IMG/VR virus record: IMGVR_UViG_2585427743_000015 | DNA from: a virus | Taxonomy: Duplodnaviria; Heunggongvirae; Uroviricota; Caudoviricetes | Length of the DNA: 37,170 nucleotides | Reading direction: 5' to 3' (one strand) | Shown here: one piece after another, positions 3,636-7,190 of the stretch | Layout of the letters: each line of letters begins with the position of its first letter | How positions within the stretch are numbered: the first letter of the stretch is position 1 | The notes under the pieces: generated by a model | The model's database searches: none | What the model was told of the DNA's origin: nothing | Seen by the model: the letters and a program-made list of their open reading frames with translations, nothing else | Program-made: the position numbers and the translations under genes

Positions 3636-3881
3636 GTGATGGGCAAAGAATATAAAACTCTCATTAACAAAGCACTTGAGCGTTTTTATTTTCGCTTAAG
3701 TGCATCAGGCGCTCATGCTGAACGTGCGGCCCGTGACTCATTGACCAGAGCAATCCGAAGTCTGTATGACGTAGCTTTTTACGCTGATGATCTGGATGCA
3801 CTTAACGAACTTTCCGAGCTGATCTGTGCCGCAGAATGCGGGGAACATATTGAACCGTATAAGCTGGGGAATATCGCATGA
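3636..3881 (+). CDS. Hypothetical early protein
   Basis: 81-aa ORF, co-directional and tightly packed. Confidence 0.45.
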   Translation: MMGKEYKTLINKALERFYFRLSASGAHAERAARDSLTRAIRSLYDVAFYADDLDALNELSELICAAECGEHIEPYKLGNIA

Positions 3882-4026: not shown

Positions 4027-4344
4027 ATGAAAACAATCCGCACTCGCGGAGGTATCCATATATATAAACACGAGGTTAGCATGCTCAGGACAAATCAAAA
4101 AATACTGAAGGATGCATATTTTGACAGGGGGCGAGATCTCGCAAAGCTTTGCGCCGCACTAAAAGAAATCAGTCAGTATTTCACTGATATTGAAGATGAT
4201 ATAGCTAACAAAGGTGCCAGTATTACATTAGCGAACAGAGCACATTTTATGGGCTTTAATGTTTTCACAGCCATAAGAACATTAAAAGAACAAAAAGAAG
4301 AAATAGAAAAGCTCAAATACAGACATAAAGCCAAGAGGGTGTAA
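4027..4344 (+). CDS. Hypothetical protein (AT-rich moron)
   Basis: 105-aa ORF, lysine-rich, in a visibly AT-rich stretch (~3880-4340). Confidence 0.45.
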   Translation: MKTIRTRGGIHIYKHEVSMLRTNQKILKDAYFDRGRDLAKLCAALKEISQYFTDIEDDIANKGASITLANRAHFMGFNVFTAIRTLKEQKEEIEKLKYRHKAKRV

Positions 4345-4547
4345 TGGCAATTAAGCATTTTCCTGTCGTTCGCTTCACCTCCAGAGACCGCGAATACGAG
4401 GTCGACGAACGACTGATTACCACTATCGACAAACATCGTTCGGAAAAGGATGCACATCACATCTATCTCACTGACGGCACTTACTTCTGCGCCACGAATG
4501 TGGTGCGGGTAAACCTTATCCGACAGGTACAGGAGTCACGCAGATGA
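4344..4547 (+). CDS. Hypothetical early protein
   Basis: 67-aa ORF, translationally coupled to neighbours. Confidence 0.45.
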   Translation: MAIKHFPVVRFTSRDREYEVDERLITTIDKHRSEKDAHHIYLTDGTYFCATNVVRVNLIRQVQESRR

Positions 4548-4810
4548 CCATTCTGGACTACATCGCTACCCATCCGGGTTGTAGCGGCGGAGAAATCGCC
4601 GCAGCACTGAATACCCCAACCACAGCCATCAATGCTGAGTTACGCCGACTCTGGCGCGGCGGCTTAGTCATCAGAACAAACCGCAGCACAGGTGGTCGCG
4701 CTCGCAAAGCAGGAGGCCAGGCTTCTTACCACGTAAACCCGATGCCGTTCGGGTGTAGCAATCCACTTACTCACATGTTTAACCTGCTACTGAAGGAAGC
4801 CAGAGCATGA
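4544..4810 (+). CDS. Hypothetical protein, possible winged-helix DNA-binding
   Basis: 88-aa ORF; 'ILDYIATHPGCSGGEIAAALNTPTTAINAELRRLWRGGLV' looks like an HTH/winged-helix. Confidence 0.45.
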   Translation: MTILDYIATHPGCSGGEIAAALNTPTTAINAELRRLWRGGLVIRTNRSTGGRARKAGGQASYHVNPMPFGCSNPLTHMFNLLLKEARA

Positions 4811-5106
4811 GCGCCATCAACCACCAGGAATTACGCGAGCTGGCGACTGACCTGCAACGAATGGCAACGCATCAAAAATTACTGGCGTTTCGCGCAATGC
4901 TCTCGCCATCTGCCGTGCTGGCACTGCTGGATGAGCTGGAGCACGCCAGAACCATGGCTCCTGCCATTCGTCTGACGCTCCATCATGAAATCAAGGATTT
5001 TTGCGCGACGCTGGAGTCACCAGGTGAATCAGAAACGCCGGAAGCAATGCAGCAGGAGCCGCTGCAACGCATCGACAACGTTTTCGATTTTTTCCTTAAC
5101 CAGTAA
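4807..5106 (+). CDS. Hypothetical early protein
   Basis: 99-aa ORF overlapping upstream stop. Confidence 0.45.
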   Translation: MSAINHQELRELATDLQRMATHQKLLAFRAMLSPSAVLALLDELEHARTMAPAIRLTLHHEIKDFCATLESPGESETPEAMQQEPLQRIDNVFDFFLNQ

Positions 5107-5117
5107 AGGACCGCGAT

Positions 5118-5321
5118 ATGAACAAAAAGACCTGGTTTCGCGCATACATGTGGGCGCTGGTATGCGTCCTCGTCTCTCTCATTCTGTATGCAGGACTACT
5201 CCCCCGAATGATTTCATCAGACAGCTCCTTCCTGGTATTGCTGGGAATTTTCATTGCCATGCTGTACCCGGCAGGCGTTGTTCGCCTTTTCAGTAAGTAC
5301 ATCAAGGAAATCAAACAATGA
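5118..5321 (+). CDS. Small membrane protein (two predicted TM helices)
   Basis: 67-aa ORF with two hydrophobic segments; immediately upstream of the SPFH lipoprotein gene with overlapping stop/start. Confidence 0.5.
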   Translation: MNKKTWFRAYMWALVCVLVSLILYAGLLPRMISSDSSFLVLLGIFIAMLYPAGVVRLFSKYIKEIKQ

Positions 5322-6148
5322 AGAAATTCAGACTCTTTCAGATTCTCCCGCTTTTTGCCGCCATCCTGCTGGTTGGTTGCGATCGCGTTGAGCCAGGTAA
5401 TGTGGGCATCAAAGTCAACAAACTGGGCGACGACAAAGGCGTCGGTGAAGTGGTTGGCGTTGGCCGCTACTGGACAGGCTGGAATACAGAGGTTTACATC
5501 TTCCCGACCTTCAAACAAATGAAGAGTTACGATGAGCCGTTCAACTTCCAGATGAGTGACGGCACAACCATCGGCTATCACATCGGCGTGGCCTACAAAG
5601 TTGATCCATCCAAAGTTACCACGGTGTTTCAGACCTACCGCAAAGGCGTGGACGACATTACCGACACTGACCTGCGCCAGAAGATCGCCGATGCACTCAA
5701 CCGACTGGCCAGCAAAATGACCACCGATAAGTTTATCGACGGTGGTAAGTCTGAACTGCTGGATTCAGCACTTAAAGATATTCAGGAAGAGATGACCCCC
5801 ATCGGTATTCAGGTCATGAGCCTCTCTTATGTCGGTAAACCGGAATATCCGCCAACCGTTATCGACAGCATTAACGCCAAAGTCACGGCAAACCAGAAAA
5901 CCCTGCAACGCGAACAGGAAGTCAAGCAGCGCGAAGCAGAAGCCAACATGTTGCGCGCAGAAGCTGCCGGACAGGCCGATGCCATTCGCACAAAAGCCCA
6001 GGCTGAAGCCGACGCCATTCGTTTACGCGGCGAAGCTCTGCGCCAGAATCCCGGCGTTATGGAGCTGGAAGCAATCAACAAATGGAACGGCACGCTGCCG
6101 CAATACATGACCAGTAACACCGCTGTTCCGTTCGTTCCCGTGAAGTAA
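5318..6148 (+). CDS. SPFH/Band-7 (prohibitin-like) domain lipoprotein
   Basis: 276-aa ORF; lipoprotein signal with lipobox 'LLVGC'; central domain and Ala/Glu/Arg/Gln-rich coiled coil ('QREQEVKQREAEANMLRAEAAGQADAIRTKAQAEADAIRLRGEA') typical of SPFH proteins. Confidence 0.7.
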   Translation: MKKFRLFQILPLFAAILLVGCDRVEPGNVGIKVNKLGDDKGVGEVVGVGRYWTGWNTEVYIFPTFKQMKSYDEPFNFQMSDGTTIGYHIGVAYKVDPSKVTTVFQTYRKGVDDITDTDLRQKIADALNRLASKMTTDKFIDGGKSELLDSALKDIQEEMTPIGIQVMSLSYVGKPEYPPTVIDSINAKVTANQKTLQREQEVKQREAEANMLRAEAAGQADAIRTKAQAEADAIRLRGEALRQNPGVMELEAINKWNGTLPQYMTSNTAVPFVPVK

Positions 6149-6315
6149 TGACACCCGGCCAGTGCAAACCGCTGGCCGGAGCAGTATCAGGATTTTTTAG
6201 TATGCCGTTCTCACAAAAAAACCGCTTGCCATGCCGCAATCAGTCAGGTTACATTTTCGCTGCACCTCATAAAACGGGTGCCGGGTTTCGCAGCCTGCTG
6301 ACAACCAAAGCGCAC

Positions 6316-6337
6316 AACCGCGCCAGCGGTTTTTTTG
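6316..6337 (+). terminator. Rho-independent terminator
   Basis: Hairpin AACCGC-gcca-GCGGTT followed by a run of T's. Confidence 0.5.
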
Positions 6338-6378
6338 TGCGTACTGTATTGCCACGTTTTTTTCGCGTCAGAATTATG

Positions 6379-6452
6379 GCGGGGCGTACGGGGCCGACTT
6401 CGGTCGGGCCGGGTTCTTTGGTTGCCGGTACTGCGAACCCCGTACGTCTCGC
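6379..6452 (+). other. GC-rich structured element (possible small RNA, RNA regulatory element or DNA structure)
   Basis: Outer 9-bp stem CGTACGGGG (6385-6393) / CCCCGTACG (6438-6446) enclosing hairpin CCGAC-TTCG-GTCGG and a CCGG/CCGG stem; lies in a ~370-bp noncoding gap. Confidence 0.3.
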
Positions 6453-6515
6453 CACCCACAGTTTCGCAGCTCTGGATGGTGAGTTTTCAAAACTTACAAC
6501 CAAAGAGGCCACACC

Positions 6516-6746
6516 ATGGCAAACCGCAAACAGCACCGCGCTATCGCGGAGCGTCGTCACATCCAGACTGAAATCAACCGCAGACTTTCCCGCGCATTCC
6601 GCGTCGCTAAAATCATGCACATCAATATGCTGCATGAGCGTAGCTGCGAACTTTCAAACCTCTACTCATCCGCTGTTTTCAGTTATCTGGCGGATGATCT
6701 GCGCGAGCTTCAGCAGCTCATCCAGCAGCAAAACAAACTCCATTAA
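6516..6746 (+). CDS. Hypothetical protein
   Basis: 76-aa basic ORF upstream of the replication gene. Confidence 0.4.
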   Translation: MANRKQHRAIAERRHIQTEINRRLSRAFRVAKIMHINMLHERSCELSNLYSSAVFSYLADDLRELQQLIQQQNKLH

Positions 6747-6818
6747 TTCCTGTTCCGGGCCTTTCCTGCACCTTGCGGCAGGAGGCCTTCGCACATCTGT
6801 AACAAGAGGATTGCCGCA

Positions 6819-7184
6819 ATGATTCTCGCCAACGACTTTCTTGAATACCTGCTCAACACAGAGCGTGATCTTGCCGTTCGCGTGCGTGAACGTTATGACA
6901 TGTACCTGAAATCCCTGCCTGTACCGCAGCTCGCTGACGGAAAGATTGTTATTGATGGTCGCTACATGATTGACAGCCACGAGGGAAATTACAGGCTTTA
7001 CCGCATTGAAGGTGGCACTCCGTCCGTTATTGGCATTTACCAGCGCCCATCCTCTGCAATCGTCGATGTGATTGCCGACAGCATCCGCATCACACATCGC
7101 TATGCCGACACAGAAGACACCGTGCTGGAAATTCAGCGGCTGGCTGCCGTTTGCCGTGACACCCTGAACGGTATGACGCAGTAA
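6819..7184 (+). CDS. Hypothetical protein upstream of gpA (gene B position)
   Basis: 121-aa ORF ending 7 bp before gpA start. Confidence 0.5.
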   Translation: MILANDFLEYLLNTERDLAVRVRERYDMYLKSLPVPQLADGKIVIDGRYMIDSHEGNYRLYRIEGGTPSVIGIYQRPSSAIVDVIADSIRITHRYADTEDTVLEIQRLAAVCRDTLNGMTQ

Positions 7185-7190
7185 ATCAGT

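Follow-up and report, generated by a model that had tools for sequence, protein, structure and literature searches.

Why would a temperate phage of the P2 family carry a prohibitin-like lipoprotein, together with a small membrane protein, among its early genes? The question is raised by a stretch of 37,170 nucleotides, IMG/VR virus record IMGVR_UViG_2585427743_000015 (the whole of which we call the window), which holds a P88-like prophage (Xuanwuvirus, Peduoviridae; P2 family). Two of its genes encode a 67-aa protein with two transmembrane (TM) segments and, overlapping it, a 276-aa SPFH/Band-7 lipoprotein; over the region of this pair the DNA is 94% identical to that of Escherichia phage P88. 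An earlier note on the window had pointed out the pair and proposed that it may act in superinfection exclusion or lysis timing. SPFH proteins such as prohibitin, stomatin, flotillin and HflK/C build membrane cages, and to our knowledge the contents of bacterial SPFH cages beyond HflK/C are largely unestablished. We find that the partnership of the two proteins is ancient and reaches from temperate and virulent phages to plasmids and bacterial chromosomes, and we suggest that it may act on the inner membrane of the host in a general way.

A lipoprotein coupled to a membrane hairpin

The N-terminus of the 276-aa protein reads MKKFRLFQILPLFAAILLVGC followed by DRV, with the codon of the lipobox cysteine, Cys21, at 5378-5380 and Asp at +2. 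Alignments of distant homologues show this cysteine to be at least 90% conserved. In E. coli, Asp at +2 classically signals retention of a lipoprotein in the inner membrane, and from this residue we would expect the protein to be kept, probably, in the inner membrane. The Pfam family Band_7/SPFH (PF01145) is matched over profile positions 2–176 of 176 (E=6.5e-31; 108.2 bits against a cut-off of 23.6), and PHROG 200, named 'lipoprotein', with E=6.1e-112. The phrog_200 profile has 379 positions, about 80 of them additional at the N-terminus, which is consistent with the fused members of the family described below.

The AlphaFold model of the protein (44 homologues; mean predicted local distance difference test, pLDDT, 85.4) has an alpha/beta domain at residues 20–176, then a single continuous helix of 65 residues, and at residues 245–254 a short helix that leads into a low-confidence tail. 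The long helix is, in this model, the coiled-coil 'wall' element of SPFH cages. In the C-terminal motif, where pLDDT is low, W256 and G258 are invariant, and L260 and P261 are at least 90% conserved. All the elements of a cage subunit are thus present: membrane anchor, SPFH domain, wall helix and conserved C-terminal motif. Full-length Foldseek matches were obtained to the prohibitin complex 8rrh (4e-14), to HflK/C with or without FtsH (8e-14 to 1e-10), and further to erlin, stomatin, flotillin and QmcA-YbbJ (QmcA 1.3e-8), the probability being 1.00 for prohibitin, HflK/C, erlin, stomatin and flotillin. By sequence, the nearest protein in the PDB is HflK (E=1e-4).

The 67-aa protein consists of two hydrophobic stretches (aa 9–28, TM1; aa 38–56, TM2) that are joined by the short loop PRMISSDSS and flanked by basic ends (MNKKTWFR at the N-terminus, RLFSKYIKEIKQ at the C-terminus), from which the positive-inside rule predicts a hairpin with both termini in the cytoplasm (N-in/C-in). 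It matches PHROG 1130, 'membrane protein' (E=1.3e-22), in the PHROG category 'moron, auxiliary metabolic gene and host takeover'. The Pfam search found no NfeD in it, its sole match being a sub-threshold one to RseC_MucC (E=0.032); we also considered it as a holin or a spanin and rejected all three identities, as neither Pfam nor PHROG gave a family match. Among 42 distinct alleles from related prophages, the ratio of non-synonymous to synonymous polymorphism (pN/pS) is 0.06 for the SPFH gene, and for the small open reading frame (ORF) it is 0.28 in its own frame versus 0.71 and 1.95 in the other two. This purifying selection in both frames indicates that both ORFs are real genes under selection.

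The stop codon of the small gene and the start codon of the SPFH gene share the four bases ATGA, which implies translational coupling, and the identical 4-nt overlap is found in phage phiP27, in one Salmonella prophage and in phage KpCHEMY26. A homologous hairpin stands upstream in three unrelated E. coli phage contexts. In phiP27 (NC_003356) it is an unannotated 62-aa ORF at 2762–2950 with two TM segments and the loop motif, whose end forms the ATGA with the start of L05; in a third group of E. coli viral contigs it is a 78-aa ORF that overlaps the SPFH start and has the loop LLPNMISSD. A homology search with the 67-aa protein itself (word index) returned close E. coli relatives only, and more distant partners were found by inspecting the DNA upstream of SPFH homologues. 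We surveyed 85 loci in this way, from a collection of one genome per species and from other sources, counting as a partner any ORF with a loop P-x-x-[LIVM]-S between hydrophobic stretches that ends within about 30 nt of the SPFH start. The hairpin is separate and upstream in 65 of the 85 loci and fused to the SPFH protein in five. The taxa include Enterobacterales, Xanthomonadales, Pseudomonas, Sutterella, Alphaproteobacteria, Leptospira, Bacteroidota and Dependentiae, and Gamma-, Beta- and Alphaproteobacteria are all represented.

The fusions are informative about the architecture of the pair. In a profile-free exhaustive search, SPFH homologues formed 2,890 clusters (50% identity; E<1e-3), many with representatives of 330–400 aa. 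In the fused proteins, which include P0143, P0149, P0154, P0304 and P0308, the hairpin retains its loop motif and continues in frame into a third hydrophobic helix that ends in a lipobox, after which the SPFH domain follows; P0001 is an E. coli fusion allele that is 96% identical to the SPFH protein of the window. AlphaFold places the helices of a natural fusion at residues 5–38, 43–67 and 74–89, with moderate confidence, ahead of the SPFH fold. If signal peptidase II cuts at the internal lipobox, both subunits would arise from one precursor, an unusual, polyprotein-like maturation. Five homologues from Sutterella and from contigs of gut metagenome-assembled genomes have a plain N-terminal TM helix instead of a lipobox cysteine, so that a TM anchor can stand in for the lipid anchor; an upstream hairpin ORF is present in three of these (L100, L101, L111) and none was detected in the other two (L114, L115). 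Coupled translation and repeated fusion argue for one unit with a fixed stoichiometry. The earlier note had read the pair as an SPFH lipoprotein with a coiled coil and an overlapping upstream 67-aa protein with two TM segments, and had called for a profile search for Band_7/SPFH. The lipobox LVGC, the Band_7 match, the modelled helix, the exact limits of the two ORFs, their overlap and the two hydrophobic stretches all agree with it, and the hairpin-SPFH partnership is ancient and much stronger than that note could tell.

A cassette in the early operon and its relatives elsewhere

The pair lies between the divergent repressor gene and gpA, in a run of plus-strand genes that extends from an early-promoter-like site up to gpA, and hence inside the rightward early operon (Table 1). 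The early-promoter-like site is, judged by its sequence and position, the presumed source of transcription of the pair. The early operon of P2 (cox, orf78, B, orf80-83, A) contains nothing that resembles the pair. Both the placement in the early region and the lack of a P2 counterpart were thus correctly seen in the earlier note.

Table 1. Positions in the window of the pair, its elements and the prophage features referred to in the text
Feature	Position	Strand	Basis or remark
Integrase	1-1002	minus	
Two genes without assigned role	between integrase and repressor	minus	
HTH (helix-turn-helix) repressor	2051-2455	minus	Pfam
Early-promoter-like site TTGACA-17-CAAAAT	2465-2493	plus	adjoins divergent repressor gene; 10/12 consensus score
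Weaker promoter-like site (9/12)	3664-3692	plus	inside early operon
Cassette with both genes and 3' hairpin, 1,105 bp	5107..6211	plus	comparison with empty site
AGGA ribosome-binding site of small gene	5107-5110	plus	
Small two-TM gene, 67 aa	5118..5321	plus	ORF listing, hydropathy
Predicted periplasmic loop PRMISSDSS, family motif P-x-[LM]-[IV]-S-[SA]	5202..5228	plus	
ATGA stop/start overlap	5318..5321	plus	read from sequence
SPFH/Band-7 lipoprotein gene, 276 aa	5318..6148	plus	Pfam, PHROG
Signal peptide (aa 1-20) and lipobox L-V-G-C	5318..5380	plus	read from sequence
SPFH (Band_7) domain, aa 23-209	5384..5944	plus	Pfam
Single continuous long helix, aa 179-243 (65 residues)	5852..6046	plus	AlphaFold
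C-terminal motif W-N-G-T-L-P	6083..6100	plus	homologue alignments
GC-rich hairpin CCGGCCAG...CTGGCCGG, no adjacent T-run	6155..6178	plus	just 3' of SPFH stop
gpA, replication gene A	7191-10013	plus	Phage_GPA (Pfam)
Holin/antiholin phrog_126, endolysin phrog_465, spanins phrog_214/3001	about 19.3-20.8 kb		lysis cassette

The limits of the inserted segment follow from phage vB_EcoM-705R2, in which the window's flanks 4333–5106 and 6212–8000 are joined with 18 bp between them; the pair is missing, with matching flanks, from this phage and from four other relatives. In the window the cassette fills the space between the stop codon of an ead/Ea22-like gene (5104–5106; 11 nt separate this stop from the ATG of the small gene) and the promoter of an isrK-like small RNA (sRNA). 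When complete E. coli genomes (5,426) were searched, with the two flanks joined to find the empty site, the whole cassette was present in 145 and the same junction was empty in 957. The site is essentially binary, for which reason we rejected the idea of a variable hotspot with alternative cargo; it also means that no guilt-by-association inference can be drawn from defence cargo. A different insertion of about 540 bp occupies the same junction in one sampled record (H180, NZ_CP087377.1 1732984-1734718). We looked for mobile-element scars and found no repeats at the cassette borders, and the GC content of about 0.50 is like that of the flanks, so the composition is not foreign.

Scans for consensus matches revealed no sigma-70-like promoter within or just upstream of the cassette, in the window, in phiP27 or in a P1-like locus, and no canonical terminator after the pair; in phiP27 a different GC-rich hairpin follows the SPFH gene. 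In the window the early-promoter-like site and the weaker one at 3664–3692 are the only promoter-like sites on the plus strand ahead of the cassette, and the terminator scan did not pick out the GC-rich hairpin after the SPFH stop. By these scans the cassette has neither the promoter nor the terminator of its own that mark a moron. With no promoter-like site of its own, expression in a lysogen is not expected, and from the early-operon position we infer early lytic expression.

The pair is shared well beyond P88-like prophages. P88 carries it as gp11 (membrane protein) and gp12 (lipoprotein, putative SPFH; NC_026014 / KP063541), gp12 being 98.9% identical to the protein of the window. phiP27 and many Stx2 phages carry the mature part of the SPFH gene at about 92% nucleotide identity, there labelled 'serine protease'; P2-like, lambdoid Stx/phiP27 and P1-like elements share the gene at about this level. 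By tblastn the SPFH protein is encoded in 385 of 50,697 phage records. Virulent lineages among them are Schitoviridae (N4-like), Ounavirinae (FelixO1-like), Vequintavirinae (PVP-SE1-like), Bruynoghevirus, and the phiCbK-like, crAss-like and Lak phages. Three virulent phages, KpCHEMY26, GAP31 and phiEa21-4, have the gene among early or middle genes for replication and nucleotide metabolism. KpCHEMY26 gp28, a 61-aa protein with '2 TMDs N in C in' and the loop LPAMISAKDT, overlaps the SPFH gene gp29, and in GAP31 a homologous hairpin, GAP31_161, which also has the family loop motif, is encoded one gene further upstream. In Rhodopseudomonas, Epibacterium and Salmonella prophages the gene lies between a CI-like repressor and an integrase, on the strand of the replication genes and again in the company of genes for replication and nucleotide metabolism.

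A further 625 plasmid records matched by tblastn, 601 of them non-mobilizable, and they form two classes by size and identity, Yersinia pestis plasmids included, which we take to be P1-like and SSU5/pMT1-like phage-plasmids. An SPFH lipoprotein of 77% identity with a hairpin ORF is found on Yersinia pestis plasmids of 96–137 kb (L093, NCTC5923 contig), presumably of the pMT1 type, and likewise on non-mobilizable plasmids of about 106–114 kb in E. coli, Citrobacter, Enterobacter and Salmonella (H137-H139), which we read as SSU5-like. On chromosomes, at least 24 Dyella/Rhodanobacteraceae genomes (L102-L132, L144 and L158 among them) share a syntenic locus in which the pair stands between a BlaR1-like gene and nrdB-nrdA, the neighbours being identified from N-terminal sequence and size; in Leptospira the pair adjoins putative succinate dehydrogenase (sdh) genes, assigned solely by the size and order of their ORFs. 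Dyella/Rhodanobacteraceae thus have a vertically inherited, cellular form of the module that is apparently not of phage nature, and with the synteny there and the Leptospira setting the module is also a cellular housekeeping unit.

Several other features of the prophage came to our attention. Directly 3' of the cassette, on the plus strand, are an isrK Hfq-binding sRNA (6262–6336; Rfam 65.9 bits, gathering score 50), whose unit is fitted by a promoter-like site at 6226–6255 and a terminator-like site at 6316–6331, and a C4 antisense RNA (6372–6459; 87.1 bits, gathering score 45). Both are upstream of an ORF for a 76-aa 'derepression protein' (6516–6746; Pfam Derepression), and the region looks like a P1/P7-type C4/antirepressor control module in a P2-family phage. 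A 224-aa ORF on the same strand (6148–6822), the counterpart of which is annotated in vB_EcoM-705R2 as a 205-aa hypothetical protein, is almost certainly spurious, as it overlaps the two Rfam-supported RNAs and has a composition that is not protein-like. Between integrase and repressor, on the lysogenic strand, stand a DUF2511/phrog_2950 gene (1008–1355, minus) and a phrog_5825 gene with a weak match to a 'membrane protein' moron (1385–2035, minus). P88 is without counterparts of either at that position, and they may be lysogenic-conversion or defence cargo. The 319-aa ORF after gpA (10090–11049, plus) is the counterpart of P88 gp17, annotated 'plasmid segregation protein ParM', which is surprising in an integrating phage of the P2 family. 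Three tRNA genes clustered near the right end of the window (36171–36470, minus; Rfam tRNA, 54–69 bits) probably belong to host sequence at the attachment site of the prophage.

What the pair may do in the infected cell

The explanation that we find best, and for which we would give not quite an even chance, is that the two proteins are one conserved membrane module, a cage that acts on inner-membrane proteins of the host. A P88-like temperate phage would have acquired the pair as a promoterless 1.1-kb cassette in its early replication operon, and the pair would be made soon after infection or induction and probably not in the quiescent lysogen. The 67-aa protein would insert into the inner membrane as an N-in/C-in hairpin with its loop P-R-M-I-S-S in the periplasm, and the 276-aa protein would be exported and lipidated on Cys21, its SPFH domain lying in the periplasm while the lipid probably holds it in the inner membrane. 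The SPFH domain and the 65-residue helix probably form a ring or cage that walls in part of the membrane, as prohibitin, HflK/C, stomatin and erlin do. The sole conserved soluble feature of the hairpin is its loop, predicted to lie in the periplasm as the SPFH domain does, and the hairpin may supply the transmembrane anchor that the lipoprotein lacks, or may be the partner enclosed by it. The phage would in this way alter the behavior of host inner-membrane proteins during infection. The structural part of this proposal, in which a prohibitin- or HflK/C-like cage sits on the periplasmic side of the inner membrane and the hairpin forms its transmembrane subunit, is in our judgment likely.

Deep conservation, the occurrence in virulent as well as temperate phages and the chromosomal pair lead us to favor a conserved machine of the host inner membrane, or membrane physiology at large, as the target. 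Phages are known to target the quality-control protease FtsH, as lambda does by way of CIII and CII. As it is also the recurrent client of HflK/C, QmcA and prohibitin (PDB entries; PMC2636767), FtsH is by analogy our leading candidate for a client, albeit a tentative one. Put in its most specific form, the proposal would make the pair an early 'viral prohibitin', a self-contained, lipid-anchored periplasmic SPFH cage with a hairpin subunit of its own that captures a universally conserved inner-membrane machine, most plausibly FtsH. We consider this full version, in which the temperate P2-like, lambdoid, P1-like and SSU5-like and the virulent N4-like, FelixO1-like, PVP-SE1-like, phiCbK and crAss-like elements would share such a module, doubtful. 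If true, it would mean that membrane-protein turnover and the sigma-32, LpxC and CII circuits are reprogrammed for the phage; the pair would parallel lambda CIII on the membrane side, and the hairpin would stand for a new, non-NfeD class of SPFH partner.

A number of observations weigh against this account. Identity to HflK/C and prohibitin is only 15–18% in the Foldseek alignments, and the NCBIfam models for HflK and HflC score far below their cut-offs (TIGR01932, 25.7 bits versus 134.4; TIGR01933, 23.4 versus 159.4). Most non-enterobacterial members have Ser and not Asp at +2, so inner-membrane retention cannot be generalized across the family. No hairpin was found by the motif search in 15 of the 85 surveyed loci, which may reflect the limits of the search, and in phiEa21-4 there is no obvious hairpin directly upstream of the SPFH gene. 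The module is dispensable, as the 957 E. coli genomes with the junction and no cassette make plain. As the promoter and terminator scans recognize consensus matches only, a weak internal promoter is possible. Lastly, we found no experimental work on any member in the literature searched, a body of papers that omits most subscription journals.

Superinfection exclusion, as proposed in the earlier note, would have the complex of hairpin and lipoprotein on the periplasmic face block the entry of secondary phage DNA, like T4 Imm/Sp or the lipoproteins Llp, Cor and Ltp, and so protect the infected or induced cell. It is attractive in that the cassette is accessory, present or absent among near-identical prophages, and is shared at about 92% nucleotide identity by P2-like, lambdoid Stx/phiP27 and P1-like elements; the PHROG category of the hairpin would suit it, and an early envelope protein of this kind recalls T4 imm and T5 llp. 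Exclusion proteins, however, are usually narrow in range and fast-evolving, and here pN/pS is as low as 0.06 and conservation extends from crAss-like and Caulobacter phages to coliphages. The lysogen would moreover go unprotected, as no private promoter was found, the site is no variable defence hotspot but either empty or filled by this very cassette, and the syntenic chromosomal version in Dyella fits poorly with such a role. A known defence system was rejected as an identity: PADLOC-DB v2 has no defence model that matches the SPFH protein, and for the hairpin it gave a marginal match to PDC-M18B (E=0.0078) with no qualifying stretch. We therefore regard exclusion as unlikely. We hold it to be a little more unlikely that the pair stabilizes the envelope or sets the timing of lysis, the two being judged jointly. 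In the former case the cage would steady the inner membrane and keep up the proton-motive force, averting premature holin triggering or membrane-targeting abortive infection, and early expression in virulent and temperate phages alike would suit protection of the membrane through the latent period; bacterial SPFH proteins have also been tied to membrane stress and to recruitment of the phage-shock protein, Psp (PMC8581546). In the latter case the holin-like 67-aa protein (two TM segments, N-in/C-in, basic C-terminus) would itself regulate the lysis clock, and in formal terms it is built like a class II holin or antiholin. Yet it has no match to a Pfam or PHROG holin family, and holin/antiholin, endolysin and spanins form a separate late cassette some 13 kb from the pair. 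In none of the contexts that we examined is the pair beside lysis genes, and the chromosomal pairs of Dyella and Leptospira stand without any lysis context.

Two further explanations concern the lipoprotein. Made by the lysogen and displayed on its surface or on vesicles, it could serve lysogenic conversion as an agonist of Toll-like receptor 2 (TLR2) or as a virulence factor, in the manner of PM0222 of Pasteurella multocida (PMC9872710). The cassette is indeed common in pathogenic E. coli (enterotoxigenic and Shiga toxin-producing strains, ETEC and STEC, and UTI89), and a homologue sits on Yersinia pestis plasmids of the pMT1 type. We nevertheless consider this highly improbable, since the pair lies without a discernible promoter within the repressed early operon, Asp at +2 predicts inner-membrane retention in E. 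coli, virulent phages and environmental bacteria have the pair as well, and any triacylated lipoprotein can trigger TLR2. To the idea of a protease we give next to no credence. It has in its favor only the annotation 'serine protease' in phiP27, Stx2 phages, Erwinia phages and some bacterial records, a label probably taken over from an earlier COG designation, 'membrane protease subunit, stomatin/prohibitin homologue'; Band_7 is the sole Pfam domain, what remains of the protein is a signal peptide and one helix, no peptidase family is matched, and the structural neighbors are all SPFH scaffolds. For superinfection exclusion and lysis timing, the functions that the earlier note had in mind, the evidence gathered gives no specific support. 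The pattern as a whole (no promoter-like site of its own, no convincing PADLOC match, lysis genes 13 kb away, a place among early or middle replication genes of virulent phages, and vertical inheritance on the Dyella chromosome) points instead to a general effect on inner-membrane physiology and not to a phage-specific block of entry.

The conserved membrane module that we favor would be of interest for several reasons. It is a compact SPFH system of two genes that is genetically tractable, being dispensable, under strong selection and available in natural cassette-plus and cassette-minus prophages, and its carriers include Shiga-toxin phages and Yersinia pestis pMT1-type plasmids. If the pair targets FtsH, or blocks DNA entry, it would represent a widespread and unrecognized takeover of the host membrane by phages, and the hairpin would add a new kind to the operon partners of SPFH proteins. 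We point out that 'serine protease' is wrong on many records of Stx phages and others, and that the small gene is left unannotated in phiP27 and elsewhere.

Comparison with known systems

The closest known system is gp11/gp12 of P88, on which we found no paper in the literature searched. Cassette, place and phage type are the same and there is no substantial difference: the window is another isolate of this phage type. Envelope proteins of phages that serve superinfection exclusion, small membrane proteins or lipoproteins that alter the envelope and several of them early, include T4 Imm and Sp, T5 Llp, phi80 Cor and TP-J34 Ltp; they have no SPFH domain, and we found no relationship in sequence or fold between them and the pair. 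Among phage-borne SPFH proteins, the only one for which we found experimental data is PM0222 (Pmorf0222), an HflK/C-like protein of 25–35 kDa from a Pasteurella multocida prophage. It is reported to occur in outer-membrane vesicles and to elicit TNF-alpha and IL-1beta by way of TLR1/2, and mice are reported to suffer less from a deletion mutant, whose virulence is attenuated (PMC9872710). It is similar in size to the protein of the window and was studied as a host-directed virulence factor of vesicles, the likeness being drawn from the published description. Phage SPFH genes otherwise appear in the literature searched as mentions in genome descriptions, in one of which it is speculated that the gene acts through HflB to drive lysogeny (PMC10269572). 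The 'band 7' of a phiCbK paper turned out to be a gel band.

HflK/HflC with FtsH (PDB 7vhq, 7wi3, 9cz2) share with the pair an SPFH domain on the periplasmic face, here predicted, and the long helix of the cage wall, and they are linked to phage biology through FtsH and lambda CII. They differ in being a hetero-oligomer of two paralogues, each with an N-terminal TM helix. The window has, in place of two adjacent paralogues, one SPFH gene with a lipid anchor and a separate hairpin as neighbor, which is without an SPFH domain. The prohibitin PHB1/PHB2 cage provided the best Foldseek match (8rrh), and NCBI names some homologues, such as P0304, 'prohibitin family protein'. The bacterial 'p-prohibitins', subfamily SPFH4, were predicted to face the periplasm before any of them had been studied (Hinderhofer et al., 2009, PMC2636767). 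By description they resemble the lipoprotein of the window, although no operon partner was reported for SPFH4 in that survey of prokaryotic SPFH proteins, which found such partners only in NfeD-linked subfamilies, whereas here a hairpin partner is conserved. In the NfeD-SPFH operons (QmcA-YbbJ, PDB 8z5g; stomatin with STOPP) we recognize the same arrangement of a coupled upstream membrane gene that is sometimes fused to its neighbor. The hairpin, however, is without NfeD or an OB-fold, and QmcA faces the cytoplasm in contrast to the exported protein described here; we read the likeness as functional analogy and not homology. In conclusion, the gene pair (P88 gp11/gp12; PHROG 200 and 1130) and the SPFH annotation were already known, whereas the conserved non-NfeD hairpin partner and the motif in its loop, the fused proteins with their internal lipobox, the range of phage lifestyles that share the module and the syntenic chromosomal form are, as far as can be told, described here for the first time.

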